A DNA stretch of 64,000 nt from an uncultured bacterium (GCA_965371665.1 CBDUZI010000001.1:9411-73410), one strand, 5' to 3'; numbered from the stretch's first letter, positions 9,602 through 64,000 are shown. Numbers and translations: made by a program. Notes: generated by a model from the letters alone, not told the origin.

Positions 9602-9611
9602 ACGCCATCCC

Positions 9612-23495: not shown

Positions 23496-24344
23496 TTATC
23501 CCTTCACCGCCCCGGCTGTAAGTCCTTTAATAATATATTTGGATAGGAAAAAATAAATAATTAATAAAGGAATAGTCGCAATCGTGAGACCGGCCATAAG
23601 TAAGGCATAATCCGTAAGGTGTTCTCCCTGAAATACCATGAGTCCCCGTTGAATCGGCATCAGGGCCCGGTTATTAATAATAATCAGCGCCAAAAGAAAC
23701 TCATTCCATACCGCCAGGATAGTAAATATGGCTACCGTGGCAATCGCCGGGGTAGACAAGGGCAGAAATATCCGCCAATATAAGTTGAATTTGTTGCACC
23801 CGTCAATAATTGCCGCCTCTTCTATCTCCTTAGGCACATTTTCAAAGAAAGTTTTAAGAATAAAAATTGCCAGGGCTAACCCGGCATTAGTATAGGGAAG
23901 AATCAGTCCCAAGCGGGTATCGGCTAACCCTAATTTAATTAATAAAATATAAAGCGGAATAAAAGCGCCGGGTATGGGTATCATGAGCGAGCCAATAAAC
24001 AATAAGTATAAAAGGTTATGTCCCACAAATTTAAAGCGAGCAAAGGCATATGCCGCCATGGAGGCCAGGAATAGTACTAAACCCAGAGTAATGGCAGCAT
24101 AAAGAATGCTATTAAAAAAATAAATACCAAACGAGCCGACTTCCCAGGCAGTTATATAATTAGCGAATTTCCAAGCTTGCGGAATCAGGGAAATATTAGA
24201 AAATACTTCATTCTTGTCCTTGAGGGATGAAGCGAACATCCAGAGCAGTGGAAATACACTCGCAAACGCCCATAAAATAAGCGTACTATGTACGGGAATA
24301 TTGGCAAACGCCTTACGCCTGATTCTCATATCTTCCAGCCACAT
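23496..24344 (-). CDS. carbohydrate ABC transporter permease (MalG/BPD_transp_1 type)
   Basis: 282 aa, six hydrophobic segments, EAA-loop motif EEAAIIDGCNKFNLYWRIFLPLSTP. The start could instead be the ATG 15 nt downstream (MRIRRKAF). Confidence 0.9.
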   Translation of the reverse strand: MWLEDMRIRRKAFANIPVHSTLILWAFASVFPLLWMFASSLKDKNEVFSNISLIPQAWKFANYITAWEVGSFGIYFFNSILYAAITLGLVLFLASMAAYAFARFKFVGHNLLYLLFIGSLMIPIPGAFIPLYILLIKLGLADTRLGLILPYTNAGLALAIFILKTFFENVPKEIEEAAIIDGCNKFNLYWRIFLPLSTPAIATVAIFTILAVWNEFLLALIIINNRALMPIQRGLMVFQGEHLTDYALLMAGLTIATIPLLIIYFFLSKYIIKGLTAGAVKG

Positions 24345-24435
24345 CCTTTCATACTTAATTCGCCGTTTACCTTAGGTTTGCATTCTTGCAGCCTGTAAAG
24401 AAGTTTATATTTATTCCGCTCCAGATAATTTTTTT

Positions 24436-25338
24436 TCAACGAGTGTCTAATCTTTTACTAAGTTTCAATTGCCCCAGCGATAAAATCAGAAGCATAATCC
24501 CCAGTATAACGGCTTGAGCCGTAGCATAACCAAAATGGTATGACTCAAAAGCCATCTTATAGATACGCGTTACCGGCACCTCGGTATGGAATCCGGGACC
24601 ACCATTGGTCATGGCAATTACCAGGGGAAAAGTCTGCATAGTTCCCAACAGGGTTAAAATGAAGACTAAAGTCGCAACGGGTATCAGAGAGGGAATCGTA
24701 ACATGAAGAAATCTTTTCCAGGCATTAGCGCCGTCAACCTGGGCCGCCTCATACAATTCAACCGGTATTACTTGCAGACCCGCTAAAAACAACAAAAAAG
24801 CATTACCCAAACCCTGCCAGCTCTGAACAATCGCCACTGCAATCAGCGCAGTATTTGGATCCGCCAGCCAGGGACGGGTAATATTTTCCAGGCCAATAAG
24901 GCGCAGCCAATAATTTAAAATCCCATATTCATAATTAAATATGAAACGCCAAATCAGGCCAACTACAATCAGCGAAAGTACCGGAGGAATATAGAATATC
25001 AGCCGGTAAAAATTTTTGGCACGAATATCCCGGTCAACCAAAACTGCTAGAAATAATGCCAGGATATTCTGTCCCACCAGGGCAAAAACCGCGATAAAGA
25101 GCGCATGACCTACTGAATTCCACCAGACTTTATTTTGGGTAAAAATATCAACATAATTATTCAGTCCTACCCAAATAGGGTTGGAGGATATTCCATCCCA
25201 TTCGAAAAAACTGATTCTAAAGGTTTCCAGAAACGGATAAAGTCCGAAAATCAGAAAAATAGTCAGCGCCGGTAGCACAAAAAAGTAGGCTTCCCAGTTC
25301 CGCTTGGTTTCTTTCCAGTACAAATTCCATCCCGGCAT
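24436..25338 (-). CDS. carbohydrate ABC transporter permease (MalF/UgpA type)
   Basis: 300 aa, GGGAGG 7 nt upstream of the ATG, six hydrophobic segments, EAA-loop motif YEAAQVDGANAWKRFLHVTIPSLIP. Confidence 0.9.
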   Translation of the reverse strand: MPGWNLYWKETKRNWEAYFFVLPALTIFLIFGLYPFLETFRISFFEWDGISSNPIWVGLNNYVDIFTQNKVWWNSVGHALFIAVFALVGQNILALFLAVLVDRDIRAKNFYRLIFYIPPVLSLIVVGLIWRFIFNYEYGILNYWLRLIGLENITRPWLADPNTALIAVAIVQSWQGLGNAFLLFLAGLQVIPVELYEAAQVDGANAWKRFLHVTIPSLIPVATLVFILTLLGTMQTFPLVIAMTNGGPGFHTEVPVTRIYKMAFESYHFGYATAQAVILGIMLLILSLGQLKLSKRLDTR

Positions 25339-25662: not shown

Positions 25663-28600
25663 TTACGCGGCCATGGCGGTGCTGCGGAATATCCTCCGCC
25701 TGTATTTCTCAAACGCATCGCGGTCGATGCTCACGGGCAGCAAATTCAGGATGTCCCGGAATGCGCCCAAAGCTCCGCTGTTTCCGGGCTGCAGGAGCAG
25801 CCCAGGTACCAGGATGTCTTTATGCTTCACGCCCCGCGGGGTCGAATCCCATGCAGCCAGGCTCTGCGCCTCGAGGCTGGCCATGCTTCTGCACAGTTCG
25901 CTGAAAGTGGCCACAGATCGCTCGTGGTCTTTGATTAACGCCCGGGCCTCGGCAATGTGCCCCCTGGTTCGCAAGCGCCTGATCTCGACCCGCTGGGCTT
26001 TGAGCATGCGGATCATGGCTTTTACAAAACGCTGCGTGTTCTGTGTGCTTGGATTCAGGCTGAAACGCAGGTAAGCCTGGCCGAGTGCGCTTTCCGGATT
26101 ACGCAGCAGATCCGCTAGCGTTGAGTTCACTCCTACCTGGTTGAGCACTACATCAATATAACCCATGGGATTCTGACTCCTCATATTTTTGAGCACAGGC
26201 TGCGCAATCCCTAGGGGCAGGATGAACGCGGCTAGGCGCATGGCCTGCAGGCCTAGCGTGCTCCGGACAGGCAAAGCCGGGATGGCCTCCTCGACCTGGC
26301 CGTCAAATACTCTGGCCTTCACACCCACAGGCAGTTTGTCTGCAGCCACCATAGCCGGCGTGATCTTGGTATTGAGTGGGCTGGAGAGCTTAAAAACCAT
26401 TTGGGCGGACATGACAATCTTAACGTCGCCAACCTCAAACTCATGGGTGCTGACCTGGCCGGTAGCGACCGCGCGTATAAACCGCTTTTTGATTAATTCT
26501 TCTCCGATATCCCAAATCTTGTCGTTCTGATTTTTAAGTCTGGCCAGCCGCACAGACTCTGCCCGTTCGGCCTCGGCCAGCAAGACAGGTCCGATTTCGG
26601 AATCCAAGGGAACCAAAGTGCCGGCAGCTACAGGAGTTCCGTCTGCGGCTGACCAAGCAGCAGTCAGGAGCTTATTCAGGAACTGCAGCCGCTTGCTCAC
26701 GCCTGTGTCCTGGCAGGATTTCTTCTTTAAATCATAGAGGGCCTGCTGCACCCGATTCTGGAGGTTCTTATAGGAAGCAGGCATAGTCATCAGGTAGACT
26801 TTTTGGGCCTTGACGTCCTCGTCCGGTTGTGCTAGCTCACGTTCAGGATCGCCAACAGGCAATTCCGCCTGGCTCTGAATCAGGAGCGAGAGCAGGTCAT
26901 TGAAGACCATGGCCTGGAGCTCGGACGCCAAGCTGCGGCTCTCCCTGGCCAGATCGCGTAATCTTGCAGCCTGACCGCCTTCCTCTACGCCCTCTACGGA
27001 TTCCATTACCTTCAACAAGGTTTCCAGGTTCGGTTCAGCGCCCTCCTGCAAAGCGGTCTGCAATTGTTCGCGTATCTGAGTTAAGCTGAGATCTTGTTGT
27101 GCTTCTGTAAGGTTTTGGGCGGCGGTCAGCCAAATTTCTGCCAAGCGAATAATTGAATGCACACCTAAGGCAACAGGTTTTCCTGTCTGTTTTTTGATCC
27201 AGGTTAATGCTGGTGTCCCAATTTTGAGCGAATCCGATCCCTGTTCAGGTTGCTCCTCGTCCAGTTCCCTGGTCCCAACCCCGAAGCCCATGGCCATGGC
27301 CAGCGGATCCAGCCGGGTTTTGGCGTAATACCGCTCAGCCTGGTAGCCCGCGATTACTGCAAAGAGGAAAGCATTGATGCGGTAAACCAAACGGTCCAGG
27401 CGCGAACGCAGGCTGTTGTCCAGTTCTGGCACCTGCTGAGAAAGAGCCTGGAGCAGGCGGTCTGGCACATAAATCGTAGGCCGTTGCGCGCCCTTACTGT
27501 CCAGGTCTCCGTACTCAAGATACGCGCCCAAAGCCTGGCCATGCACCAGCCGGCTAAACCCGTTCGCCTGGAGAGCGGAGAGTGGTCTAAACAGCACCTG
27601 CTGAATCTTGAACTTACGCGCTGCGGCTGCATCTGGAATCAACAGCAGGCGTTTCATCCGGTTGAGCAACGGATTGTTATCATCTACGACCACAGGCTCG
27701 GCCGTACGAGGGTTGAGGAAGATCAAAGTCGCAGCCTGCAGGAGGGCCAGCACTGGCATTAAAAGTCCTGTTAGGGCGCCGAGTGGTGCTCTCAAATTCA
27801 GGTTCCCGGCCTGGCTGCTGTCATTAAAGAATAGGGCTGAAGTCAAGCCGTAGCGCAAAAGCCTTAAGGGCCAGAACCGGATGCCGCGATAAGGCAGATT
27901 CATGTCCTCCCCGGCCGGCAGGATCTGGTGCAGACGCTGCAATTTGCGGACTAATGTTGAGGGGCCGGCCGTATCCCCTGTAGGATGAGCCTCTCGCCTG
28001 CCAGTAAGCACGGCATCCTGCTGTTTTTCAGACAGGCGAGACGCCTGTTCTAATAATAACTGAATAGTTAACTTGTGGATCGAGCACACCTGCGACCAGT
28101 AGGCAAGCAGCTCTGCAGCCATGCGAGTGCGCGGTTCCAGGCCTTTTTTCCGGCGTGCCTGGTGATCGCAGCGGTGGGCATCCTCATGCTCGAAGATCGA
28201 GCGCTGTTCTGCAGGTGTGAGATAGGAGAGCCGCACCAAATTGGCTATGATCTTGCCGCTGCCAGGATCGTAGAAAGTGATTTTGTTCAGGTCAGTGGCA
28301 GAAAAGCCGGCGCGCTGCTCTAGGGGCAAGACCGCCATGTCCACAACATTGGGATTTTTCACGAATTGCGCGATGACTGTCTGCTGAACATCGCCCCGAG
28401 GCCGGCCATCTGCAGCCCTGCGGCCACTCCACCAGATGCGGGCAGATTGCAACAGGAAGAAGCCGGCTATGGCCGGCATCAAGACTACACCCAGCCCTCC
28501 CAGGATGAAGCCGGCCGCACCCAGGCCCAGGCCTAAGCCAGTGAGCCCGACCAAGGACGCATAGCCGAATACCAGGGTTGCGTAAGCGCCCATGGCGCCA

Positions 28601-31600
28601 AGGGCTGCCAGGGCAGCGGCTGCCAAGCTGCCAATGCTCGAGACCAGTTGGACGCCTTCTCTGGGCAGGACCTGCCGCCAATGTTCCAGATATTCCAAAA
28701 TTTCTTCGGTCGGCGGCAAGCCTCGCAGGAAATCAGCCGTATCCGCAAATCCGAAATACTGCGCGTAGAAATTTAAATCCTTCTGATCGGTTGGAGATAA
28801 TTCATCATACGTGTATTCGTTGATCGCCGGCAGGTCTAGCTCAGGCAGATGATTCGTCGAATAGAGATACACTCCAGCATAAGAATCAACCAGATCGTAC
28901 AATTGTCCATAAGTCTGAAGCTCGTTCACATTGCCGATGTCTTCGATCCGGTAGCCGGCTTTGGCTAATATCCGCCGGAAGTCTCCCTCGGAAAACTCGT
29001 AACAGAAATATCCTCCGCCCCGGTATTGGTGCAGTTCCTGATTAAGGACATTGACCCAATTTCTCCAGTCACGGGCATCCAGGGTCTGCTGTCCGAGAAA
29101 CTCAGGCAGGGTCTGGGTTCCCGGGAAGGGCTGGGTAAGCAGCTGATCACCATAGGAGGCGAGAAAGAAAGCTAACTGGTCAAAGCGTAAATTTAAAGTA
29201 TTGACGAAGTTCTCAAAATCCCGATAGCCCATATTCTGCGCGATTTGATTGTATTCTTCCAGGGTGTAATCGCGGCCCAAAACGTGGTTTAAAGCACCTG
29301 CCAGACGCCCGACATTATCCAAAGTGATGGTTTCCTTGCCTCCCTGCTCCACATAAACCCGCTGACCGTCCTCACCTCTAAGATTCAAGGCGTAGAGCAG
29401 GTTTTCAAACAGGGCGTTAGTCTTACCGGACAAGGGATGGTAATAACCTGTTTTCCCAAAGTGGAAGGGACTGTCTCCCAGGAACTGGCTGAGCTGCGGC
29501 GGATAAACTTGCTGGTTTTTATATGTGGCCAGGTCCCAGATATAGTTCCAACTGCGGCTGGTTACATGGATGCCGCTCCAGATCACAAAGGCCGCGAAAA
29601 CGCTTAATTTTGAGCTGCGTGATACCCGATACAGGAAATTATTGAATCTTTTGGTCTTGGCCAGCGCCACCATCAGTGATAGAAAAAACACCGTACCAAG
29701 CTGTAATCCCCAGGTGTTGTACCACATCCGGCTGAAGTTGGCGATAATCTGGAGTTGTTTGGGTACTTCTTGGCTACCGGACAAATCCCGCAAAAATTCA
29801 CGGATCAGCGCCTGTTGCAGAGCCCGGTCCTCTGCCTGTACCGGGTAATTTTGGAGAGCCCGGGCATCGGGGTTGACAGAATCCAGCAGGGTAGACCGGG
29901 TCGGCTTTTCCCATACCGTCATTCCGCCCCGCAGGAAATCCAGGCCTGGCAGGACGCCAATCTGCTTCCAACCCGTGGCCACCAGCAGCCGGTTATATCC
30001 CGCATTTCCACTGATGACACGGTCTAAGCCGTATTGCTCATTATTTATTAAAATATCAATCAAGGGTGTCATGGAATTCATGCCGCGCTCAAAACCCAGG
30101 GTCGCAGCATCGTATCTGACTTCTGAAGGCGTTCCTTTGAAGCGCTGGTTGTACTGAATGGTATCCGCCATACGGCCCAGGGAAACGCTTGGAATGCTTG
30201 TGATAATCGGGAACTCCGCTCCTACGACCAGATAGCGGGTGTTCACCGTTCCCAGGCCTCTTAAACTGTTCGTATCTAAAAGCATGTTCAGATCCGGATA
30301 TCCAGACGGATGCAGGGGAACGATCTCTTGGCCGAGTTGCAGTTCTCCTGGTCCTGGAAATGCCTCTGGCACTCCTTCGGCGCCAGCCTCGATTTTAATA
30401 ATCCGTCTTCTCATATCTTGAGTCTGGGCGCCGATCACCAGGTTTGGCGTCGACCCTGTCTCCTGCAGAGCTATGTTTGCCGGTATTTCACCTTCCCATT
30501 CATAAACCGCTTCCAATCTTTCGCTCAAGGTTTCACCTTGAGCGGTGATTCCTTCCAAGTCAGACGAAACAATAGTTTTGACTACAAATTCATAATACTC
30601 ATCGGTTTCTACATCTTTTAAAAGCAGTTTTCTGACCTCCGGGGTATCCAGGTTGTAAACCATCACTCCTGGGGCATAAGCCGGGGTAAGCCGAACCCAG
30701 GTCTCTGGCTCCCCAGCGCGGTTCGCCATATCCCGAGACACCTCGATAATGATGTTGGAGTTGGCGCTCGGCGTGCGGCTGTGTACTCGGGCAATCAAAA
30801 ATTTAGGCAATTCCCGCAAGCGAAGTCTCCGGCTGGCAAATCCATATTCCTCGATTTGAGTTGTTGTAATTAGTTCCCCACCCTCGACCCGGGTCGATGT
30901 AAACCAATCCTCGGGATTTATTGGAATATTAACTTTCGGGCGAGGTAGTTGTCCGGGTTTGATTTTTTCCATAACCAAGGCTGGAACCCGGATAATGTAA
31001 AAGTCAAACCAGGCTCGGGCAGACCGGTTTTCAGTCTCGCTGAACTGATCGACTACGCCTAATGAAACTTCGAAGGATTGGTTTCCAGATAAACCCCATT
31101 CCCGGAGCAGATCTGCCAGATTAATCCTCTCCTGGTTACTCTGGCTGTTGAATGCAGCATAAACGTATCCGTCTGGCAGGGACGGATGATGAATGGCGAC
31201 ATAGTACGTGCGGGTTATGTCACTGATCTCCATATTCAGCCAGACATTTTCGCTGTCCAGATCCACGCGGATAGGCTCGGGCATGCGCACGCTGGCCCGA
31301 TTGGCGCCGGAAGTATTCGCGCCGCGAACTAGCAGGCCTCCCTCTTCATTCCAGTCTACCCGCGCATCCTGGAGGTGTGCCTCCTGCAGCTTCACAGAGG
31401 TATAATAGTCATCGATTATCTTGTGCGGTTCAATATCGCTTTTGTCGGCGTAAACATGCATGACCCGGTCTGCGCCCGCGGGATCGGACAAAGCCGCAGT
31501 GTTCTCCTGCCCTATCTCTCCAAAGCCAGCAGCTTCGACTTCAGGCGATTGCGAAACTTGCCCGGCCTCGAACGAGCCGAATCCTCCGCTGATATCATGC

Positions 31601-34600
31601 TCCGTGAATACCGCGCGGCCGATTTGGCGTACGTAATCATCGCCAGCTTCAGCCGGAAAATTCCCGAGCATCAAGAAACAGTTCAAGTTGTATTCATGCA
31701 GCATATTTTTGATTCTTTCGATCTGCGGGCCGACCGGTTGGTGCATGTCTTGCACCTGGATGGAGATACCATCGACCTGCGCCAGGGTAAGAGGTCTAAA
31801 CAGGATATTATGGAAGGCATCTGCATAGTCGAGCTGAAGAATGAGCAGATGTTTGTCACCGTCGATTTCTTTGAGGAAAGGAATCATTCGGTCATACCAT
31901 TTAATCAAGTCTTGTCTGAGATTGATTCTCTGCCAGTCCGTCTCGGGGGTGTTTCTCAACAGGACATCGGGTCTGTCGGACAGACTATAAACAATATTAG
32001 GATAACTATGCAGCCTTTCCACTATCGTCCGGACGTAATTTTTATTCTCTTTATAACTTTTTGCTATTTCGTCTGGGTAAATCGTATGTAACAACGCTCG
32101 ATTGAGGCTTATAATATCTTCTTCTGCCAGGATCTTTTGGGAAGCTGCCGCTTCTTTCGCTTTTGTTAATAATTGCTCAACTGCTGGAGATAGTTTGAGC
32201 TTGTCAGCATCCACTTTGGTATATAAATCAGGCATTTTCAGGACGGCATTGAATGCTTCAACCGCCTGTTTTTCTGTAAGGGTTGGCAGTTCCTCGATAC
32301 CCATGTCAAGTTCTGCAAGCAAAATAATATCGGCTTTACTTTCCCCTTTTAGTATGTACTTTAATCCCTCGACATCTAAATCGCCTTCGCGAAACACCGA
32401 AGAGGACTCAATGTCTCCCCCAAAATCCTGGTAATTTTCAAACAAGCTGACCACAACCATGATGTTTGCATCCTGGGCTAGCTGTATAAAATTTTCTAAC
32501 TTGTCCAAGTAGCTGATGTTGACATTGGGGCCGCCGAATTCAGTGTAGGGAATCTGCATAATGACACTGTTGGCATTCTTATCTCGCAGGCCTTGCACGA
32601 GTTGGCCCAGGGATTCCGGTGTAGCATTTTCCCACCAGCCCGGCTGGGAAGTGTCTAGATTAAATCCCCAAAGCTTGACCACGTTGCCCTGGTCATCGGT
32701 AATTTGTCCGTAGCCCATGGCCGGAGCTCCGCGCACCTGGTAAGCACCTCGTCCGCCCATTTCGATGGTTTGCAAGGACGGCACTTCATAGTCGAAGATC
32801 GCCTGCAGCTGTCCGGTCCCGGTAACCTGCAACCAGTAGTTACCTTCACGATCCTCCACCTCCCTGTAGTCCACGCCCACGTATAGTCCCTGACGGTTAC
32901 TCGGCATGGAAAATTCACTTCGCCAGGAGCCGATGTCGATGCCTGCCTCAGGATAAACAAAACCTAATCGAGACCCCCAATCCATGCTATTACCCTTAGA
33001 GTCAAGCATGGCTTGGATTTCAGGCGGACACTGGTCCGGCCGCAACGTCTCAATGCCCCGAATGTGCGCACCCATGCCGGCTACAGGGGAAACACCTCCC
33101 GTAGGCAACGTTTTGCGCGAAGACTCCGGGTCCCTTTCTATTTGGAGCGGTGATTCCTGCCATTGGCCGGTTATACCCATATCAAAGCGTATGGCCCCTC
33201 CCATCTTTGCCAGTTTCTCCGGAGATAACACGATGTAATAAGTACTGGGAGCAGGGATATCCCAAGTAGCTAAGGGTTTGGGAACACCCAACATAGATTT
33301 CCTGGACATTGCTTGTCCGCGGGTTTCTATGCGCGATATGGCCAGCCTGTCCGCTTCCTCGGTCGCCAGTATTTTAGCCTCGGCTATTTTCTCCTCTGTT
33401 TCCGCACCCTGCATGAATCTTTCCAGGGCGGTTTCATAATCGGCTCGCCAGGCGCGCATTTCTACATCGTTCCCAAACTGTTCCTCACTAGGATCTAGTT
33501 TAAAATACAATTGCGCATTGGGGGAAAGTTGATCCACCTGGATGGCAATAATATTGTAGCCCTCTGGCAGAACCATCTTCCGGCTGACATAGCCCCGGCT
33601 ATGCCGCGGGCTGGTTCCGATCAGCGTCAAGCCCTCGGAGTCGGCGCTGAATTTTAAACCGTATGGCTCCCACTCCCAAACCCGCACTCCCTTTACAGAT
33701 ACGTCGTACCGGTCCCCGGCTAGGGGAACACTCAAGCGGCCGCTGTCCAGATTATCGGGTACGCCAGGATCATACGGCAGGATTTCGGGAGCCGGCCGCT
33801 CGGTGTAGTCTACATTCAAACCCTGCTGGTAGGCGCGCATGATATTCATGGCAATACTATTATCTAAAGTTTCATCCTCGCCTATTCGGTTCCGGAAAAA
33901 GAGAGTTTGCAGATAGCTAGCTGCCCGCAACCGATCCCAGCCTTCAATATTAGTCCACTCCGTGGCCAGATCCGGGTTCAGGCTGAGGAAGGGATCGAAT
34001 CCGGCAAGGAGCGCTTCATCGGATAACGCCGGGTTTTTCTTCCAAAAGTTGATTCCCATCCTTTCTTCGTGTCTAATAAGATCGGTAGATGCCAGGAAAT
34101 AATTCAGGGCAGACGCGGGAACAACGGAGAGATTCGGGAATCCGGGAATAGTTATCTTTCTCCAGCGCAAAGCTTCCCGGGTTTTTTCGGCGTGGGCATC
34201 CACCATGCCGAAAAAGTTTTCTATGGTAAGCTGATTAGGCTCATAGGCCACGAATAATTCCGAATGCTGGATCGGCAGAGGCCTATGTATGCCTTTTAAG
34301 GGCTGAAATCGATCGACCATCCATTCCAGACTACGGAGGAAGATGTTCGAGCCTTCTGTAGCAATATTTTCATATTCTCCGGACTCAAAACGCCCCAGCC
34401 CGACCTTCACGTCCGCCAGGGGACTCTGGCCGCCGGCCACAGGCTCAGGCCGAATAAAATGGGCTTCTGGTCCATACCACAATTGCCGGGCATGGATCAT
34501 ACCGTCCAAAACTACATGCGCATCCTCCAGCGAATTAATTCCGTACTCTTTCAGCCGGCCTTCATCGATCAATCGTTGCAAAACCAGCTCGAAATTTTCT

Positions 34601-37600
34601 TCGTAAATCACGCCTTGGGACCACATAGCCTCGACATCAAATATCAGCTCTAAAACGTCCTTCAGACCTTCAAAGCCGTAATCCCTGAGTATTCCGTTGT
34701 GATGGAGGTAGATCACCAGCAGTAAGTCTTTGGCTCGGCCGCGCGCCGCATAAAAGTTCTGCTGATTATCCAGCAAAGCACACGCCTCGTTAATGTCTAT
34801 ATCGTAGTTTTCCAGGACACCACCGGCTTCCAGGTCATTTAGTACCTCCTCGAAGGGCGTGTCCTGTAAAACGTCCCAAAGGACATCGATATTGTCGTTG
34901 ACAAATTCCATCTCATGGAAAGGCAAAAGCCTGACGTCTTGCCGTTCCAGCAAATAGGCCGGATGCCGCGTCCAGACATAGCGATAAAGAATCTCGGGAG
35001 TCCAGTACTTAGAGAAGAAATACTTGGGCCAAGGCAGCAGTGTCTCCCCGTTCATGCCTGAGTCTTCTCTTAAAAGCCGCTCGAACTCCGCATAGGTAAG
35101 CGGATCATAACCATTCTGTTCAACGAGATGATTCAATTCAAGCAAGATGGCCCGCATGGCCACCTTCTGGTCAGAGCGCTCCACACCCCTTCCGATATTC
35201 GTTCTTTTCAGTTCCGGCATGAACGTGGATTTCAATTCATGCTGCAGGCGGTCGCCAGGATAAAAATTGAAAATCTGCCAGAGGTACTGCGTGACTCTCG
35301 ATTCCAGTTCCCGGGCAGAATACCTGGCCAAAATATCGTTCCGGTACGGCTCCCAAAGGCCGTGAGCCTGCAGAAGTCTCATTTTCTCCTGGGGTGAAAT
35401 CGTACCGGCCTGAAACCGCCGCAGGGCGATGATGTCCCTGACGTCGAACCGGCCTTCCTTTTGCAGGGCGTTCAATTGCACGAGCAATCTGTCCGCTTCG
35501 TCGGGAAAAGCCCATTGCTCGGTTAGCAGGTTATCGAAACCGGCCGGGGAAAAACCCATGAGGCTTAAAAAATCTTCCAGTTCAATGCCATTTTTCGGAA
35601 GAGACCGCTCAACGGCTGGAATACCGCAAAAGTCGAAGACCCGCGATTGTTCGGTGAACCCGGTTACTGTCGGCCCGACCAGCGGATTGCCAGAAGCGCT
35701 AATGGCAAACTCAAATCCACCTGCTTCGGCCACCATGAATTCCCGGTATTCCTGTTCAAAATTATCCGGCCGAAAGACCGCTTCATCCGGAACAATGTAG
35801 TTCCAGTAATATCGTTCATCCCAGCCATCGGCTTCAAAGGCTGCCCAGCGAAGACGGGTTTTTCTCTCCAACTCGGCCACGATCCATTGCTCATCCTGGA
35901 TTACGTTCTGCACGTTTTTGGCATTCACCTGGGAAGGCTTGAGGAAGCGGGCAATTTCATTCTGGATTCTGAGGTACCAGTTATACCTGGCCAGTTCGGA
36001 AACATTTGGATTATTCGGATCATAGCCGTAATTAATATCCCGCACCGTTCGGATGAAAAAGGTAAAACTGATGCCCATGTCCTGGCAGAAAGCCCTGATG
36101 CTCTGGTAGTCGCTTAAGTCCAGATGCTCCATTTTCCACACTTCAGTCTGCTCCGATTCCAGCCGGACATCTTCCAACGTTCCGCAACTATCTTCCGGGC
36201 TGGGATGGGTAGTTAAGCTAATTCTTGTTTCCACGACATCCTCGATGGGTATTTCCGCCTTTTCAATTACCATCAGGAGGTCCACCTGGCTGTAGCCGTG
36301 GATAAACCACGGTCTGACTTTTACAGTAACCTCATCCTTGGTAGTGGTTTTTACCGTTAGGATGATGTCAAGGTAGCCTTGCCTGCCCATATAATTACCA
36401 GTAGAATTGTAGCGTAAAAACCGGGTGGCCTGGATTTGTTCTCCGGATACGATCCAGCTGATTCCTGCTGCGGGTTGGTCAGCCAGGGATTCAAAGGCGT
36501 AATGATTCTCGACGCCTTGCTGTGTGGCGGTGAACCGGGTCGGGTCGGTGGCATCCTGCGCCAGCATCACCACGTCGCCGGTGATCTCTGCCGTCGCGCT
36601 GGTTAAAGGCATAACCATGGTCGGAAAAGGCTCGGCCCGAACCTGGTTCGCTGACCGGTAAAGCACCTCTTTGGTGCTTTGAGAAAGTAGATGGGAATCG
36701 ATGTAAGCAGGAATTTCACCCTCTTGCTGCGTTACCGGAGTAAATATGGTTTTTAAAGCTCCGGGAAAACCGCCTGTCTGTCGCTCCTCAGCTTTACGGG
36801 CGGCGGCTTGTGGTTTGCCCACTTCGCTGGTGGTTGAGCCAGAAGATGCGAAATCCGTTGCAGGCTTTCTGGAATCCGGACCGGTATAATAGATCAGGTA
36901 ATCCAGACCCTGTTGCAGGCTGGGTATGCGCAGCGGTCCGATTCGCATTTCTGGCGTCAGCATGGCAAGTCCTTCCGAATATAAATAACCTGATAGGCGG
37001 GGGGATTGTCCTAGCCAGGTAAGTACACTAAGGATAACCGGCGTGAAAAACCACATCAGTCTCCACGCTGCCTTAGAGCGCCAGCTTGCTTCCTCAGGCA
37101 GCTTCTGATTTCGCGCCTTTTCTTTGCTCGCTCTCCAGAAATCCGGACGTTCTGGCAAGATAGCCCGCAGCTTCTGCTTGTCCCGGAAAATCCAGAACAA
37201 TCCAGCAATCATCGAAACAAGCACTCCCGCGCTGACCGCAAACAGAAGAGGAGCGATAAAGTTGCCCATAAGAAAAGCAATAATGCAGAAAACCAGGGTC
37301 AGGCTGAAAATAATTTTCCCAAAAACACGCGCAGTGGATTTGCCCATGACACCGGTTTTTTCTGCAGCCACTAAGCCGAGCGCTGCCAGAATACTGATCA
37401 TTAGTGCAGCCAGGATATCTAAAAATGCAAAATGGATTGCTCCGAAAAGGACAACCGTAAGGACGAATCCGAATAAGAAGAAATAGCTGAATTTAAACAG
37501 GCCCTTGGTAATATCCCCGGCCACCTTCCAGGTGGCCCAGTTCAAAGGCATCTGGCGTAAATGCTGCACATACTGCCTCAGATTCCTGATGGAGCCGCGG

Positions 37601-40600
37601 ATCTCTCCCACCAGTTTTTCCAGCACCAGCAACAGCAGGAACAAGGCGATGACGGGCACGATCAGCGACAAGTTGAAAATTATTGATAGGATGATCATTA
37701 CCACGGCAGCCATGGCGACGACTTTCCAGCGGCTGCGGAGAAGTTGCTTTAATCCGAAGTAATTGAAATATTTGAATAAGACTGCGAGAAGAATAATTGT
37801 CGGCACTGTATAGACTATACTCATGGGATCGGCAGATAAAACCGTTATCACATTCTGGTAGGTGGAGATAAAAGCGGTAATTATCCAGTCGATAATATTT
37901 AGAATAATTTCAACTATTGGAGCAGGAACATATGGGACCACAATATTTCTCCAGACCCATATGCTAATTGGGACCGGCAGCATGAGTACGATCGCCCGGA
38001 TGATGGCCACGAAGAGGTCCTTGGTTAGCAAGACCGGGATTTTAAGCCGTTCCGGCATCTTTTGGACAACTCGCTGGTTAAATACCCAGGATATTCCAGC
38101 TCCCACCAGAGTGGTTTCCAGCATCCGAAGCAAGGCTTCACTAAATGGAATAGCGGTAATGATGCCCAGGCCAGGGACCATGAACAAAACCGCAACCTGG
38201 TACATCAAGGTCGGAATCACGCCATAGGCCATCTGGGACAGGGATTTCAAGCTACTGTGGCGGAAAACCCGTTCGATTAAGACTTCCAGGATATAGGCGC
38301 TCAAGGGGGCCAGGATGATAATCAAATTAACGGTGAGGATGGTTTGCCAGACATTATACTCCACGCCGACTTTGGCTAGATTGGTGATATTTTGACCCAA
38401 AAAATCAGAAATACCCGTGAAGAAGGCGAATACCAAAACATTCGCAAAAAACATTCCACTTATAGGCATCTTGAACCGGATAAAGTAATCTGCACCGTAC
38501 TTCCCGGATACTACAATGGCGGCCTTGACGGGTATCAAGATTTGTTGCTTAACACATTGCCACAGAGGCTGGTAATACCTTTCCCAAAGCTCAATCAGCC
38601 GATCTTTGAGCTTTATCAAAATATCCTTCACCCGACGCAATATATCCAAAATCTTCTTCTTCACCCACTTAAGCCCGTCGCTAATTTTCGTAATTGCCGT
38701 TTTCACAAAGCGGATCATTCGCTGGACGAACTCGATTCGCAGGATCAGAAACAGGAGATTTTTGACGAACCTGATGGCAGCTTTGACGCGATTAACGATT
38801 TTGATGACGATATTATCTTTAATCCAGATAAGAAAATTCACAATAATGGGACGGATGATCCGGACAAAGGGACTGACGATCTCCTCGTAAATCCTTTTCG
38901 GCAGGGTAATTGGCAGGACGAGGGCCAGCTGTTTGACCACGTGTCCGATCTCGTGAACGGTTATACGTACAAAGCCATGGGGATCTAATCCGATATCGGC
39001 CAGGATCCGGCCGATGGGGTTGACCTTCCAGACCCACTGTGCCCATCTCTGGTACCAGGGCAGCTCTCTTTGCAAGGTCTCCGCAACTTGCAGCATCATG
39101 TTGCGCATGACCCGGCTCGGCGTGCCCTGTCTGGATTGGAGGGCGCGGTTGAGCAAGGCCGTCTCGGTCAGGGCGCGTTTGCCTGCCTCGGTCTCGAAAA
39201 AGGCATAATAGTTTTCGAATTCCTGGGCAATTTTTAAGATATTGGGCGGAATGAGGTCTTTAAGTTCGTTTCTGGAGGGTTCACTGACTGCCATTTCCAC
39301 CGGTACTTCAACCGCCTGCTTTAATCCCAGGTACCGACCAAGCACACCTAAGACTATCAAGAGTCCCAGGCCCATGATGCTTCCAGCGAGGATGGCTGCT
39401 CCACCCATGAGCATGGTAACCATCCCGCCAGCCAGCAGAGCCAAGCCAGTAATACCCGCAATAATCATCCGCGTACTTACACGAATGGGGGTATCCACCT
39501 GGCCCTCCCCAGGCGCCATGGTTTCCGGTGGAGAGGTTTCCCTGGGCGGAACCTTATCCTGCGCGAATGGATACAGGGCCTCCAGGAAATCCCCCATCAT
39601 GGCCTCACGTGCCTGGTCAGAGGTAATGGCGTCGATAAACTTCAGCAGATCCGTAGTATATTTATTAGCCTGCATGGCTTCGGAATCCGATTCCACCACG
39701 TCCGTGCCCAAAAAGGTGATTCTTCCACCGAGCTCCTGATTAATCTTGATGGCTATTTTTTTGATTTCCAATTTTCCCCGCGACGTTTGGGCCAATTCCC
39801 GGATTTCATCGGCGATTTTGACCAAATCAATCGTGGTGCCTTTTTCGAGATAGAAACGCCGCTTGAAAAGCTGGAATAGTTGTTCCGCCGTGATCTCGAC
39901 CGCTTTGCCCGCGAAAAACGTCCGGTTTAAATGCCAGGCAAACAACTTCATGCCGTTCATGCGCATTTTAGCGACATCTTCCCTCATGATGGCTTCATAA
40001 CCGCCCAGAAAGAAGAAGCGTAGGCCTTCGGCCAAATGCACACGGTAAATATCCGGGATCGAGCGCAAAGCCATGGGCGGAGCTCCTGCGAAATTGGCCA
40101 GCGGTCCCGGCCGTCCGGTTCCGAAAGTATGGGACATTATGTGGATGGGACCCTGCCCCTCGATGACTCCCTGGTATTTGGCCAGATCCTCCTCCTCGAC
40201 CCAGCCGGTATGAAGTATCGAGCCGTACAACAGTCCCATGATGTATTTGGCATAGGCTTCACCCGCATATTTATCCCCGGCAAACATAGGACTCGGGTGA
40301 TCACCACCGGTAAAATGAATTTTCGGAATCACGCCAGGCAAGGCTTCTTCCACCGCCCGCTTCAGTTCTGCTTCCAGTTCATTCAAGCGCTCCTCTGCAG
40401 TCAGCCGGGCTTCCACCTCAGGACGTAGCTGAGCACGAAGTTCTCCCCGTTTTCTTTCGATTATGCGCACCATGGCGGGGTAATAAATGTCGGTAAATTT
40501 GTAGCTTCCCAGCTTGCCAAAGGTGAAAAATATCCATTTCTCTATTGGCACCCGCGTAAAGTCCACCGGTGGAGTGACCTCGGCCATGTCCAGCAGGTGG

Positions 40601-43600
40601 TGAGTAACCGCGCCGGTCCGGCCTTGGAAATTAAACCAGGGATTATAATCGGCGATTGCCCGGGCGTATTCCGGCTGAAGGAAAATGAGTTTGTTCAGGT
40701 AAAGGTAAATCAACTGGGAGAGTCCCCAGGTGCCTAATTCCTCTTTGGTCCCGGCCTTCACCTGGGTGGCCTGCAAATCCACTCTTTCAATCACGTGGTG
40801 ATAAGGCGCGCCGATATGGGGGGTTCCGATCACCAAGGAATTGAACAGGCGGGAAACATGTCCCACCACGGCGCCCATCGGACTCTTATCGCCTTGACTG
40901 GTGAAGAGCATGTTAATCATTTCCGCATCCGAACCGGGTTTCCAACTCTCGGTCAGGTTCCGGGCAAAATTGTAAAGCCCTCCCATCTCATCCCAGGTCT
41001 GGATTAAGCTGACATTATCATGTTCCAAGGCGGCTGAAGTGACTACGCCGAATTCATTTCGGCATTCAGGACATAGACTATGCAGGCGAATCACTCCAGG
41101 ATAACGCCAATGTCCGTAGTTCACCAGCAAGCGCAGCTCCACATCCGGCCCCGCCGCATTGGCCAGTGGGATAATGGTATTTTGCATGTATTCGGACACG
41201 CCTCCGCTCTTTCCCAGTCTGCCCATTTCCCCACCAACATCTATCAACTGCCCGTCCGGATTATCTTCGAGTCTCATCCCAGGAATAACCTTTGCCTCAT
41301 CATCCACAAAACTGGAAAGGGTAGCCACAACCCCGGTACCCAGTTTGGAGGCTAATCCGGATTTCACTTCAGCCTCGGATGTCATAAGGCCTTTAACCGT
41401 ACCGACCATATCCGACAATTCAAACCCATTCGCATCGATTCGCCCCAGTTCGGCTACCGAGTTACAAACTGTTTGCAAATAAGTTAGACACTTTAAGGCA
41501 TAAGTCCGATTAGTGTGATCGGTTAAATTACTGATGTATCCTTGGCTGGCCAATTCATAATATAATCCTTGCACGCGCTGGTCGGTAAAAGCGATGGGCA
41601 CGCCGGCTTCAACATGCGCTTTGAGGGCTTGATAAATCACTTCAATATCATCTCCCAGTTGCTGCATCTGAGAACGCATATTCTTAGCCACATAAGTATC
41701 CCTAACCCTTAACCGCTCAGCAACCAAGGTAATGTCATGTTGAGCTTCGGGTATTCTCTCTGAAACGCGCAACAAATAAATCAAGTCCTCCATGCTTTCC
41801 GGGTCAGAGAGATTTAGGTTCTGCAGAAGCTCCCACACGGCCTGAAGTTTCTGAATTTTCTCAGGGGTAAAGGTCTGCCCGTCCCGAACTTTTTTAAAGA
41901 TTTCATGCAATTTGGCGATTTCCGACGGCTGCATCCATTTTTCCAGCAAAATGTCATCGCGGCCACGGGATTTAATCTGATCAACCAGAGCCCTTAAGCC
42001 TTCGTCTTCCTCACGGTAACCCGGCCCCATGGCATCCAAAGGAAGCCTGCTGGCCTGTCTTCTCTCCCGGCTGATGTCCTGGCGCACCTCCTCGGCCACC
42101 AGATCCGCGCGTATGTCACCCTTCCACTGCTGGATTTCATATAGAATTTTTAACAATTCGATCTGGCTCGGATCCTGCCGCAAGGTTTGCAGGGCAGCCA
42201 GTTTTTGCCCTATCCGATCGGGAAGAATCCTGCCCTGGACGATCAAATTGTCGGATAAGCCGGCCGCCTCGGAAGCCAAACCGTACTCTGGCATATGGAT
42301 TAAAATCTGATCAATGCTTCTTACTGCGCGGGGCAGGTCATTACGCTGATATATCCCAATGCCCGGACCCATAGTGGTGCTGACAGTCAGGACAATTTTT
42401 TCTCCGGGTTTCTTTCCCAAGCGCCTCCGGACTTGGGTAATGGCCTCTCTGAGTTCTTCTTCCGTGATCTCTTGGTTTAAGATGGCCTGGTCCTGGATCA
42501 TCGTGTCTATATCATGCCACATCACATTAAGCTCGTGCGCCATCTGCCCCATAGTACCGTAGAAGCGGTGCCGGCCCTGGCGATGGATTTGTTCGTCCTC
42601 TGCCCGGAATTCGTGCTGGTCGCCAATTTTGGCTCTCTGCCCTAAATAATCGAGATCACCTTGATCGCGGGCCAGGACAGTTTCCTGATAAGCGACGGTA
42701 GCAAGGATAAGGGCCAAACCGACAGCGGCAACTAACATTAAAGTTGGCGCAATAATGCTGAAGACGACTATAGCCGGCAACATAACCAGCGCGCAGGCAA
42801 CGGTAGTTCCGCTCTTACCCGGTATGCGAGCCGTTAAATAAAACCCGACTAGAGCAATAAAAAAAACCGCAAGAACGACCATCAAAGCCGGGGTAGCAGT
42901 CATGGCTGCCAGGGCAATGCCGGCCAAACCCATCACACCCAAGGCAACGCCGAATACGAAAAATGTTTTTCCCAGGAAGCCTAAATTCCCGAAGCTTCTG
43001 GCAGCCTGATAATGCTCGACGGCTACACTGCTCCTGCGGCTTTTTTCAATCATGTTTTCATACTTACGCAGGTTGTAATTAAACTCAGAGTAAAAATACT
43101 GCTCCCGCAGCATTTCGATGGTACGGCTCGCCTCTTCAGCGCACAGACGGGCCTGTTCTACCGCCTCGGGAGGCTGCCGACCGGCCGCAATCGCGACTTC
43201 AGCTTGTTCCATGGCCTGTTGCGCCTCCGCTTCCTGCTGTTTCGCAATCACTATTTGTTCCTGTAAAAAATCATTATAACTTTGGGCATCGTAACCCAAA
43301 ACCGGTTGATCATTGGCGTTGGTGATCAGATGTTCCATAAAATCAGCCTGAGTCAAAATGTTGGTTTTATTTCTTTGAGTAGGCTGTAAATCAAAAAGAA
43401 TCGTCCGTATCTTAGTGAAAAAACCATAGTCCGGACTGGATTTAAGCTCTGCCTGGTAATAATCCGTTATGTGTACATTGCCCTCGGCATCGATCATGAC
43501 TCCTGAAAAATCTTCGGTCCCATGATAATTCAAGCCGTGGATATCGAAGACATTTATTGCGGTCTGGAACTTTTTGGCCAGGCCTATTATCCGGTTAAAA

Positions 43601-46600: not shown

Positions 46601-49600
46601 AGGCGCACGGCCGGCAGGATGACTTCATCGCCGCTTAAAGCGGCAAGGTCTTGGGGAGAAATCAAACCTGCGCTGGCGCCTAATTTTTGGGGATCCAAAT
46701 GAGAAGCCAGAACTATACCAGCAGCATAGCCTTTATCGGCAAGCCATTGATTTGCTTTGGCGATAATGAGTTCACCGTTGGGTTGACTTAAAGCTTCACT
46801 ATTAATCATAAATCTTTTGGTCCCGGACCATTGGCTGATATCCGACCGGGTTTCTTTGTCTCCTTGCAAGGCAAAATAGATTTTTATTCCATAAAGCAGG
46901 ATCGGTGGCACCAGTATAGCCAGTAAGGGATTTATCACTGAAATGCTCAGGATACCTAAGCCGCTTAAAGTTTCGGCCAGGTTAGCAACCGCATCTAAAC
47001 CTAAAAAGCGAGTGTACACCCAGAAGCCCAGCCCCATTCCGGCAATGATTAATCCGCCCCCCGCGGCTTTGCCTGCCATTCCAATTTTACCCTCTAATTT
47101 AAAAAGGCGGAGTATTTCGGCGAGTTTTTTCGCTCGCACGCCAAACAATTCAATAAATAGAATGGCGCCGAGCCACCACAACAAGTGCACCAGTTCAAAT
47201 CCCATGATCGTCTCTATCAAGCCAGACCAAAATACGACGTAGGCTGCAAAGGCACTACTGCCTAAAAAGCTTGCTATTCCCAGAAATTTATTCCTGGTTA
47301 TTCCATATACAATAAAATAACCCATAACCAATGCAGTCAATGCAACAGCACTTCCCAACATGATTTGAGTTCCAAAGAAAAGCAATCCCAACCCAAGGGC
47401 AATGGCTCCCAGGGATGCTAGAACCTTGTTCTCCAGGGCGCTCCGGATTTTCGAGGATTTAAAGGCAGGCGTATCCTTGCCTTGCAAGAGGGAAATGACG
47501 GTCTGTCCCAGATTTTTACCTAGAGCGTCGATTTGTTCCGAACGCAATGGGGTTGAGCTCTTCTGGATAATTAGTTCCAAAAGTTTATTTAAAGGCGTAT
47601 TTTTTCGGCCTGGATTTATGCCTTTGGCCGTGCCTAACGTCAAAGTGCTGCCTTCGGAAAATTCGGCGGGTTGATAGGGATTCGGACATAGATTCAAATT
47701 CCCTTGCCCAGCCTGACCTGTCAAAACAAAATGTTTCTCGACTAACTGCTTTATGGCTCCGTAGTCAGAATGACGCAAGACGGTTTCCAGAAGGCCATTT
47801 TTAAGTTTACTTATAACTTCATCTGGTTCCTGTCTCGGCCAAAGATAAGCCGCAGCACCTATGGCGAAAAGCAGAGCCCGGGGGGACTTCGCTGCAGCCA
47901 GCGAAACTCGCAAAGCTTGAAGTCTTTTCTCTTGGTCTGCGTCTAAAGTTTGGGCACCAGCCAGATCAATAATCTCCTGGTCCAGCCTATGTATCTCTTC
48001 ACGCTCTTTTTCCTCTGCCTGGGAACCCAATGTTTCTGCCAAAGTCTGAAGCATATGTTGGTTTTTTGCTTGAATACTCTGAGTATCGCGTTGTACCGGT
48101 TTAGCTTTTTCAGTTTTTTTAGCCGTCATGAGTACGTTTAAATTCGCTTCGAATATTTCCGGCTTGCTTCTGTCCAGTTTTAAGGCCACGTTTAAAAGGT
48201 TTTCCGCTTCCTCGCCCTTGAATCCAGCAGCTTGGATTTTCTGACGCAACTGCTCTTCAAACTTATCAATCTTTACCTCTTTTGGCTTTTCATCTTCATA
48301 CAGCTCTTCCTGCTTCTTCAATTCTTTTTCGGCCCAGGCCTTGGCCTTTTCCTCGCTGAGAACCGGGCCGATCAGGGTTTTATATTCCTCGCGAAGATCC
48401 GGATAATCCTTGCTAAGAATCATGCCGGCAAAAATTTCCAGGAAGCTGAACCATTTCCAGCGATTCGGCTTATCGAAGAGTGTGCCCGGGTATTGGGTGA
48501 CATCATGACCCGTGACATGGAAGAGTCTTTGCTTAATCGCGGCCAATAAAAATTCTCCCGGCTCCCGTCCGCCCACTCTGGTCTCGGCCTCGGATTCAAT
48601 CCAGGGAATATCCTTGCCCATGACCTTATGACCCGACATCAGAGCCAGGGTAATGAGTTCGGTTTCGAATTCCATCTTGACGCTGCTGGCAAGTTCAAGC
48701 GCTTTCTTGACAACCTCCGGCCGAAAAGCCTTAAATCCGGCCTGCGTATCCGGCACTCCTCCCAGCGGGACAATCGCCCGGACCATGAGATTAAATCCCA
48801 GGCTCAGGATATGCCGCGCAAGCGGCTTGGCAAAAACCACGGATTCCGGGCCTACGCGCGACCCGTAAACCAGTCCGACATCCGCATTCTCAGGATTGGT
48901 CAGCGGTTCTGTGAGCTTGCCAAAAAGCCCGGCATTGGTGGAAACATCGGCATCTATATAGCCGGCTATATCCACCTCGTCTTCTTCCACCATTATTTTA
49001 TAGGCCTCGTACAAGGCTCCGCCTTTTTTTTCCTGCCTGGCGAATTTCAAGCCTTTGCGGTCGAAATAATACTCGACCCTGATCTGGTCTGCCCGGTGTT
49101 CAAAATCGCTTTCGATCACATTCTGCGCCAGCCGGGCTGAAGCGTCATCGTCTGTGGTAAAAAGAATCCTGGGGCCTAAATGTCCGGCCTTTTTATCAGG
49201 ATCACTTGAATAAGCTACTCCCTCTTCTACAATAGTAATCGTCATCACATCCAGCTTTTCCACACCCTCTTTTTCAGCCTTATCCAGCTTTTCTTTAGCC
49301 TCTTCGGCGTCTTTCTTGGCATCTTCCACCTTTTTTTCAAGGTTTGGGTCCTGCTTAGGAACTAACAGGTTAAGCTTTTTTAATATAGCCGGCAGACTGA
49401 ATATCAACCCGCCCAAGCCGGCCAGCCCGATACCTGTCCAGGAACCCAATATCAAGGCCGCTGGAAAGAAAAAAGTCATGACCACTCCGGCGATGATTAG
49501 AAGAATGCCGATAATCCCGGCAGCAAGCACAGTGTTTTCATCCCAGGCATTCAAGGCTTTACGCTTTTTGCTCAAGTCTTCGTGGTTTTTACGCGCCTCT

Positions 49601-64000: not shown

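Follow-up and report, generated by a model that had tools for sequence, protein, structure and literature searches.

A predicted giant membrane protein of an uncultured bacterium carries an embedded SecY homologue fused to a SecA-like ATPase

The closest described counterparts of the gene reported here are the giant proteins of Omnitrophota, which combine many transmembrane (TM) segments with a divergent SecA_DEAD domain and glycan-active modules and are encoded near carbohydrate importers (bioRxiv 10.1101/2023.11.21.568195; 10.64898/2026.06.07.730766). Both preprints raise the question of how proteins of 10,000-150,000 residues are inserted or exported (bioRxiv 10.1101/2023.11.21.568195; 10.64898/2026.06.07.730766), and Nielsen & Lui state explicitly that insertion of giant proteins has not been experimentally validated (bioRxiv 10.64898/2026.06.07.730766). 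According to West-Roberts et al., SecYEG is encoded elsewhere, and the anchoring of the giant SecA, which has neither an anchor nor the scaffold/wing region, is puzzling; an ambiguous topology is likewise acknowledged (bioRxiv 10.1101/2023.11.21.568195). The word SecY is absent from the text of Nielsen & Lui (bioRxiv 10.64898/2026.06.07.730766). Here we describe a giant open reading frame (ORF) in a 64,000-nucleotide stretch of DNA from an uncultured bacterium (GCA_965371665.1, CBDUZI010000001.1:9411-73410; hereafter the window), whose product contains a full-length SecY homologue connected by a TM hairpin to a SecA-like ATPase (Table 1). No description of a SecY domain inside giant proteins was found in the searchable literature (the domain tables of both preprints lie outside this scope). 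What appears to be new is the embedded SecY channel fused to SecA; giant multi-TM SecA_DEAD proteins, and the idea that they are cleaved, are already known in kind.

The gene belongs to the Omnitrophota-type class of giant multi-TM genes, although the nearest detectable relatives of its lineage are FCPU426 (Goldbacteria) and Firestonebacteria. It shares with the Omnitrophota giants a single ORF of more than 10,000 codons, a large number of TM helices, TM regions on either side of a divergent SecA_DEAD domain, and glycoside-hydrolase and binding modules next to a carbohydrate import system (here GH5 together with BPD_transp_1 permeases and an SBP_bac_1 protein). In both cases the question arises whether the product acts as a single chain or as processed pieces, and in both the topology is ambiguous. 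On the other hand, the present protein is about four times denser in TM residues (~8% versus ~2% in the long proteins of Omnitrophota), shows no visible peptidase, glycosyltransferase (GT), methyltransferase or NUDIX domain, has a complete SecY directly upstream of SecA, and retains a weak match to the scaffold/wing region that the Omnitrophota giants are reported to lack.

The giant ORF is one real gene. It is listed as 25663..63852 on the minus strand (12,729 codons, with the stop codon at 25663-25665), and 49 further codons above 63852 are also open, up to base 64000; as the frame is open to the window edge, the N-terminus lies beyond it. Residues are numbered from the codon at 63852 (aa 1), those upstream being negative. 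The probability of a stop-free run of 12,729 codons arising by chance, (61/64)^12729 or ~e^-611, excludes a chance frame. The codon-position GC signature is uniform along the frame (GC1 ~0.58 > GC3 ~0.56 > GC2 ~0.39), domains are recognisable near both ends and in the middle, and three independent assemblies have co-linear homologous frames, of which two (L004 and L005) are open over a whole contig and the third (L006) up to a contig end.

Pfam was run first on 5,000-aa pieces and then on each soluble block, and NCBIfam on four segments only. The SecY profile (PF00344) matched aa 2062-2373 over positions 1-304 of 306 (E 6.5e-40, 137.8 bits vs 32.2), and in a PDB sequence search residues 18-423 of E. 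coli SecY aligned co-linearly to aa 2005-2381 (E ~1e-34). The pore ring reads L, F, T, L, I, I, hydrophobic at five of six positions, and the plug region is kept. The largest hydrophobic cluster, at 57850-56460, is therefore no membrane anchor; it consists of the SecY channel and the hairpin. In the SecA-like part the sub-domains follow the canonical order of SecA_DEAD, PPXD, P-loop/NBD2 and scaffold/wing (profiles PF07517, PF01043, PF21090 and PF07516), with matches above cut-off for SecA_DEAD PF07517 (E 1.6e-15, 57.6 bits vs 24.6; 53.7 bits in the block-wise run) and P-loop_SecA (29.8 bits vs 27) and weak ones for PPXD (18.7 bits vs 23.5) and scaffold/wing (20.2 vs 26.7). The scaffold/wing match lies at 53215-53560 (aa ~3431-3546, E 6.8e-4). 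SecA chains of the PDB align to aa 2815-3301. The protein contains TGQGKT (aa 2616-2621), IDDEG (aa 2728-2732) followed by EAGTPRAI, and GRVARQG (aa 3202-3208), which we take to be the SecA Walker A motif, the Walker B-like DEVD/EARTPLII segment and motif VI.

For aa 2001-3200 an AlphaFold2 model was computed from an alignment of 42 sequences (mean predicted local distance difference test score, pLDDT, 73.9). All ten SecY helices are seen in it, together with the 6/7-loop beta-hairpin and another two long helices; the SecY helices match the topology model described below, and the linking hairpin has a low pLDDT. In a Foldseek comparison of this model SecY chains ranked first, including 5aww_Y and 5gae_g (target-normalised template-modelling score, TM-score, 0.74-0.80), and SecA chains were matched over 730-800 columns.

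With the canonical SecYEG-SecA system the embedded module shares the ten-helix SecY fold with its plug and a pore ring hydrophobic at five of six positions, the SecA order of nucleotide-binding domain (NBD) 1, PPXD (a weak match), NBD2 and scaffold (likewise weak) with the ATPase motifs, and a SecA that is cytoplasmic relative to SecY. It differs in that channel and motor form one polypeptide, with an extra TM hairpin and inside a giant protein, that no SecE or SecG was identified here, that it lies outside a ribosomal-protein operon context, and that its scores are far below the equivalog thresholds and Pro occupies the position of R357. The accessory Sec system of Gram-positives (SecA2/SecY2) is a second, dedicated and divergent pair serving one very large surface protein, and the likeness to it is one of functional analogy, a dedicated divergent SecA/SecY being presumed to serve a large protein here as well. 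In contrast to that system, channel and motor are joined in one chain that also includes their presumed substrate, instead of being the products of separate genes, and no Asp1-3 or GtfA/B was detected here. The SecY2 models scored 97 and 90 bits, under the canonical SecY model (149 bits) and under their own cut-offs (353 and 249.6), and no SecA2 model exceeded 94 bits, where 725 or more would be required, with general SecA models ranking higher. Judged by these profile scores, the embedded SecY and SecA are highly divergent paralogues, neither housekeeping proteins nor an accessory Sec system. To our knowledge, only engineered SecY-SecA fusions are known.

When 1.84 billion representative proteins were searched exhaustively with HMMER for relatives of aa 2001-3200, only two matched over the full length of the query: P0001 (3,157 aa, 51% identity) and P0002 (2,037 aa, 41%). 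P0005 (1,527 aa, 30%) matched mainly via its SecA part, a few fragments were also found, and the other top matches were ordinary SecY proteins of 400-470 aa with 24-33% identity. Only about five relatives of the fusion emerged, from FCPU426, Firestonebacteria and unassigned metagenome contigs; those in genome collections belong to FCPU426 (52% identity) and Firestonebacteria (39%) only, with no indication of an Omnitrophota origin. P0001 is the translation of a 9,474-nt contig (L004, JAFGIQ010000284.1) from a metagenome-assembled genome of candidate division FCPU426, open from end to end, as is the Firestonebacteria contig. SecY, hairpin and SecA follow one another in P0001, P0002 and P0005, in the last of these after a classical AXA signal peptide and a small exported block, while the ORF of the JGI contig L006 (at least 2,808 aa, with a true N-terminal AXA signal peptide) has SecY and SecA with one intervening helix called. 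P0001 is co-linear with aa 1149-3878 at 44.5% identity and, as aligned, the conserved core is a hairpin, the helical block B3, SecY, the hairpin, SecA and the three-helix cluster 5. That the fusion is kept in at least two named candidate phyla, at 30-52% identity, speaks for selection on function. FCPU426, or Goldbacteria, are cellulose degraders and a sister group to Firestonebacteria and Elusimicrobia (PMC7031533).

The first-pass annotation of the window had marked 17 hydrophobic clusters by eye along the giant frame, and all of them were recovered at their places by the Kyte-Doolittle scale and by a Hessa-type apparent free-energy sum (dG) based on the published table. In each range the Kyte-Doolittle score of 19-mers, mostly free of charges, peaks at 1.6 or higher, and segments with dG<3 occur; the range given as 37075-37010 corresponds to aa 8932-8948. 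Non-overlapping 19-mers with dG<1 number 38 in the ORF, while 200 shuffles of its residues gave 2.8 on average and 9 at most; those with dG<0 number 28, compared with 1.5. A home-made dynamic-programming model, combining helix hydrophobicity with the K/R difference between flanks and run unconstrained under 108 parameter sets, gave 55 TM helices (range 28-69, median 55) in the 17 clusters, or about one helix per 230 residues. Since the model is blind to domain identity, the placement of SecY and SecA serves as an internal validation: ten helices with both termini inside were recovered for the SecY segment in 82 of the 108 sets, and the SecA block, which the first-pass annotation had assigned to the cytoplasm, was predicted inside in 107.

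Five blocks (B1, B5, B8, B13 and B16) are predicted outside and the remaining soluble blocks inside, so that four to five of ~16 soluble blocks would be exported, with ~6,300 soluble residues predicted inside and ~4,700 outside. Short outside loops contain 3 K+R in 239 residues and short inside loops 76 in 340. Whole-block composition, which is not an input of the model, agrees in that B1, B5, B8 and B13 have 7.3-10% K+R and are net acidic, compared with 11-17% in most inside blocks. Tight hairpins make up the clusters at 49530, 45070, 42990, 39480 and 28650 (clusters 7, 10, 11, 12 and 15) and parts of those at 63852, 60790, 52640 and 47440 (clusters 1, 3, 5 and 8). They are Gly/Ala-rich, with two or four helices, uncharged turns of 2-7 residues and K/R-rich outer flanks, and join two cytoplasmic blocks. 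Because such hairpins return the chain to the cytoplasm, the strict alternation of cytoplasmic-type and exported-type domains that had been read from the clusters fails, most of them being non-switching hairpins; what survives of that claim is that the chain changes sides repeatedly and that, in the predicted topology, every domain of identifiable type lies on its expected side. A placement of the GH5-type regions in the cytoplasm and SecA outside, which would have contradicted the annotation, was not obtained on the full protein with this predictor.

The extracytoplasmic location proposed for GH5-like and beta-sandwich-type modules agrees with the predictions for B1, which holds the first GH5 copy and three tandem modules, and for B13, which holds the second GH5-like region. 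GH5 copy 1 retains AWGVTNE (N275/E276) and LIFEEMG (E366/E367), which fit the acid/base and nucleophile by eye, and is apparently active. The three tandem modules, for which beta-sandwich is the label of the first-pass annotation, resemble modules of the signal-peptide neighbour ORF 1568-6784 and aa 10822-10938. The second GH5-like region is below the Pfam cut-off (E 0.038, 13.9 bits vs 23.5, over profile positions 2-83 only, aa ~10386-10471) and has lost the catalytic Glu motifs, with SDRP and LDYAD in their place. The signal-peptide-like helix ahead of B5, with its disordered Pro/Ala/Gln linker, favours export of this block.

Table 1. Features of the giant ORF, in order from its N-terminal side, and of the importer genes downstream. 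Sides of the membrane are predicted; fractions give the parameter sets in which a block was placed outside.
Feature	Position (nt)	Strand	Residues (aa)	Remarks
Giant ORF	25663..64000	-		Single open frame, at least 12,778 codons within the window
TM cluster 1	63562..63777	-	26-97	Hairpin and third helix leading out
Exported block B1	61147..63561	-	98-902	Outside 108/108; K+R 7.3%, net charge -45
GH5 (Cellulase, PF00150) copy 1	62632..63345	-	170-407	Pfam E 6e-7, 29.7 bits vs 23.5
Three tandem modules of ~140 aa	61231..62472	-	461-874	In B1
Stop-transfer TM, single	61072..61146	-	903-927	Chain back to cytoplasm
TM cluster 3	60235..60672	-	1061-1206	Two hairpins, both ends cytoplasmic
Cytoplasmic block B3	57853..60234	-	1207-2000	Rich in helix-forming residues; kept in FCPU426 homologue
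Full-length SecY homologue	56677..57852	-	2001-2392	10 TM, both ends cytoplasmic
Conserved two-helix TM hairpin	56482..56652	-	2401-2457	Joins SecY C-terminus to SecA
SecA-like ATPase	53215..56430	-	2475-3546	
TM cluster 5	52351..52620	-	3745-3834	Hairpin and third helix leading out
Internal signal-peptide-like element	52339..52416	-	3813-3838	KSKH, LTLLLPFALLSVLTL, TAGA/W
Exported block B5	51223..52350	-	3835-4210	Outside 107/108; Pro/Ala/Gln-rich linker, then TIM-barrel-like domain (core ~aa 3935-4145)
Stop-transfer TM, single	51172..51222	-	4211-4227	Followed by KKRR
TM hairpin, cluster 7	49381..49533	-	4774-4824	Cytoplasm on both sides
TM cluster 8	47017..47424	-	5477-5612	4-6 helices, odd or even count uncertain
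Block B8	45931..47016	-	5613-5974	Outside 98/108
TM and block B9	45052..45930	-	5975-5992 (TM), 5993-6267 (B9)	B9 predicted inside
TM hairpin, cluster 10	44929..45051	-	6268-6308	
Double TM hairpin, cluster 11	42691..42963	-	6964-7054	
TM hairpin, cluster 12	39340..39468	-	8129-8171	
Multi-pass domain, cluster 13	37186..38463	-	8464-8889	~10 TM helices
Signal-anchor-like TM	37009..37059	-	8932-8948	Preceded by a very K/R-rich stretch; leads out
Largest exported block B13	29710..37008	-	8949-11381	Outside 94/108; 2,433 aa; K+R 9.3-10%, net charge -120
Degenerate GH5-like region	31573..32766	-	~10363-10760	N-terminal part similar to GH5 copy 1
Weak TM	29659..29709	-	11382-11398	Followed by KTKR
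Gly-rich TM hairpin, cluster 15	28450..28626	-	11743-11801	Possibly three helices
Weak TM and C-terminal block B16	25666..27765	-	12030-12046 (TM), 12047-12729 (B16)	B16 outside 76/108; sidedness uncertain
Two ABC permease genes (BPD_transp_1)	23496..25338	-		Directly downstream of giant ORF
Extracellular solute-binding protein (SBP_bac_1)	261..1571	-		Carbohydrate-type ABC importer component

Taken together, we hold the architecture of membrane blocks with an embedded SecY-SecA to be highly probable. That the whole is a giant polytopic protein of the cytoplasmic membrane, with a private SecY-SecA translocon and a role in surface glycan degradation, is the reading to which we incline on balance; within it, the assignment of the fused SecY-SecA as a private translocon is tentative. 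In the predicted topology, Gly-rich hairpins join successive long cytoplasmic blocks, which they would hold against the membrane, and single signal-anchor and stop-transfer helices bracket the four or five exported blocks. According to the proposal, the fused SecY-SecA would thread the large extracytoplasmic blocks of its own giant protein across the membrane and could possibly also export the dozen or so signal-peptide proteins of the downstream genes. Large periplasmic loops of E. coli membrane proteins depend on SecA, and of the five exported blocks in the window four follow the SecY-SecA module on its C-terminal side. The exported hydrolase and binding modules may then act on polysaccharide, cutting it at the surface of the cell or in its periplasm, and the cleavage products would enter through the adjacent ATP-binding cassette (ABC) importer. 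The most specific form of the proposal, a functional fused 'autotranslocon' of SecY, hairpin and SecA that exports kilobase-scale blocks of its own giant protein, is, as we judge it, somewhat unlikely.

Several observations weigh against this proposal. The SecY segment scored 149 bits with the NCBIfam equivalog TIGR00967, below its cut-off of 253.6, and the best NCBIfam score of the SecA part is 108 bits against equivalog cut-offs of 800-862. The position of E. coli SecY R357, a residue of the C5 loop important for SecA-driven translocation, is Pro (P2320) here. SecY starts ~2,000 residues into the chain, and could therefore be of no help in exporting B1 of the same molecule. In control predictions on neighbouring proteins our topology model turned 6 of 11 N-terminal signal peptides the wrong way round and called no more than 4 helices in the ABC permeases, a family for which about 6 are expected; sidedness therefore rests on helix-count parity, anchored by the hairpins and the SecY-SecA segment. 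The TIM-barrel-like domain of B5 and its paralogue B9 (28% identity) are placed on opposite sides, outside and inside, respectively, and B9 may instead of B8 be the exported block of that region. The C-terminal ~1,350 aa are ambiguous, B14 being exported-like and B16 cytoplasmic-like in composition. Finally, ~60% of the giant protein has no homologue or domain detected by Pfam, PDB sequence or homologue searches. Compared with PDB sequences, aa 4501-12729 (E<=0.01) as well as blocks B10-B12 and B13 (E<=5) gave nothing above noise, Pfam at E<=1 on every soluble block added only the weak SecA sub-domains and the second GH5 piece, NCBIfam yielded no match in B1, and a word-prefiltered homologue search with block B11 and the B5 domain found nothing, although that search also missed the SecY-SecA relatives found by the exhaustive one.

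An alternative, already suggested in the first-pass annotation, is that the protein is a precursor that is inserted and then cut by signal peptidase I or II, or by a protease in the N-terminus beyond the window, into a free-standing SecY-SecA fusion and released or lipid-anchored glycan-active modules. Flavivirus-type polyproteins are threaded through the membrane and cut by signal peptidase, and the likeness extends to alternating sidedness, internal signal-like helices and small residues at -3/-1 on the exoplasmic side; in contrast to them, the present gene belongs to a bacterial chromosome, its visible part encodes no recognisable protease domain, and cleavage of the product is hypothetical. 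Like a signal peptide, the helix at aa 3818-3836 is laid out as n-h-c, with a 15-residue h-region and a cut position AGA before W, and is followed by the disordered Pro/Ala/Gln linker, and ATA/F occurs at aa 97-99 after the first helix leading out; cleavage by signal peptidase at one or two sites is plausible from these motifs. At the homologous site P0001 has a lipobox, LTAC, the sole lipobox match in this 3,157-aa protein with 11 Cys, pointing to a possible internal lipoprotein-type processing site in the FCPU426 homologue. This LTAC (aa 3001-3004 of P0001, nt ~9003-9014 of L004) ends an internal signal-like helix ~3,000 residues into the chain. The classical AXA signal peptides at the start of the shorter relatives P0005 and L006 fit processing as well, and cleavage by a C39 or S8 peptidase has been proposed for the Omnitrophota giants (West-Roberts et al., bioRxiv 10.1101/2023.11.21.568195). 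On the other hand, Pfam finds no peptidase domain in the 12,729 visible residues, the small-residue motif at -3/-1 occurs at only two of five outward helices, which is near chance, the lipobox Cys is missing from the window protein, and most module boundaries are cytoplasmic-side hairpins with no obvious cleavage signal. Overall, we consider wholesale processing of this kind unlikely, if the best placed of the alternatives. If the internal signal peptide or lipobox were cleaved, the module would be released as a free-standing SecY-SecA fusion.

A second alternative takes the embedded SecY-SecA as a degenerate relic or as a structural or regulatory module, such as an anchor or an ATP-driven remodeller of the scaffold, leaving export to the housekeeping SecYEG, SecA and signal recognition particle. 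Scores far under the equivalog cut-offs, the very divergent branches, the Pro at R357, the Thr at one pore-ring position and the low pLDDT of the linking hairpin would all fit this reading; B1, upstream of SecY, must use another translocon in any case, and West-Roberts et al. report that canonical SecA and SecYEG are retained in those Omnitrophota genomes that have giant genes (bioRxiv 10.1101/2023.11.21.568195). A relic is harder to reconcile with the retention of all ten SecY helices, the plug region and the hydrophobic character of the other pore-ring positions, with a fold matching solved SecY structures, with the preserved Walker A, DDEG/GTPR and motif VI segments of SecA, and with the conservation of the fusion between candidate phyla. 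We therefore regard it as improbable, and slightly more so than processing.

The first-pass annotation also envisaged an assembly line, in which cytoplasmic GT2 or GT-B domains make a glycan that the same protein exports and trims outside. The ~10-TM domain at aa 8464-8889 precedes the largest exported block and could in principle be a glycan-handling channel, and 'Archaeovorin'-type Omnitrophota giants do carry glycosyltransferases (West-Roberts et al., bioRxiv 10.1101/2023.11.21.568195). However, neither a GT2 nor a GT-B domain turned up with Pfam on every block (E<=1), with phmmer against PDB sequences (E<=5) or with NCBIfam on the four segments, a motif search gave no QxxRW or DDGS-type glycosyltransferase motif, and SecA is the only cytoplasmic domain identified. 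Of the proposed machine that both synthesises and degrades glycans only degradation is therefore supported, with GH5 predicted outside; biosynthesis by this protein appears very improbable. The ~10-TM domain (cluster 13) has no Pfam, NCBIfam or PDB match, and its interpretation as a second SecY channel was rejected (hhalign probability of 0.7% against a SecY profile). It directly precedes the K/R-rich segment and signal anchor that open the 2.4-kaa exported block. Lastly, the possibility that the frame is an assembly chimera, a pseudogene or a non-coding stretch merely free of stops, in favour of which stands only the lack of homologues for most of the protein, is effectively dismissed by the 38-kb open length, the even codon-position signature, the real domains distributed along it, the homologous frames in three assemblies and neighbour genes of normal length in the same genetic code, on which grounds an alternative code or artefactual ORF was dropped as well.

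Between the giant ORF and the ABC permease genes the minus strand showed no terminator-like site. Further genes downstream encode an OmpA-like protein and about a dozen signal-peptide proteins; no T2SS (type II secretion system) genes were found in the window. One of the signal-peptide proteins (ORF 1568-6784, minus strand; 1,738 aa) has a DUF6259 and an NPCBM-associated domain and repeat modules in common with B1. Four others on the minus strand (8126-9601, 9612-13226, 13273-14349 and 14706-15329) share a motif, approximately (Q/K/E)DF...W(R)D..TNP.F, just past the signal peptide and look, by this motif, like a paralogous secreted family; the motif region has no Pfam match. GC content falls to ~0.38 at 14001-16000 and 22001-24000, compared with 0.45-0.55 elsewhere in the window. 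Within the giant protein, block B3 contains a tandem repeat at aa 1644-1945, and a TM module of ~170 aa is duplicated at 80-90% identity (63490-64000 vs 60400-60897, minus strand; aa -49..120 vs 986-1150), far above any other internal repeat of the protein. It reads WAQ.AA.LVLGR.NRS.AQYAQAAEKGNK.IGYIFWNVIFCEFLAH.WDL...LFVSVPLGIPALLITLSLIAPLWISL. Such an identity suggests a recent duplication or gene conversion, and the arrangement suggests that more B1-like modules may lie upstream of the window.

The occurrence of a natural SecY-SecA fusion is of interest to the translocation field, and the gene extends giant multi-TM proteins to the neighbourhood of FCPU426 (Goldbacteria) and Firestonebacteria and connects them with sugar uptake and surface glycan degradation. 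The question of how such proteins are exported becomes a testable hypothesis, as a segment of ~1,750 residues with defined limits lends itself to expression and assays. If the autotranslocon proposal is true, the segment would be a natural single-chain Sec machine, which would explain the insertion of multi-thousand-residue proteins.

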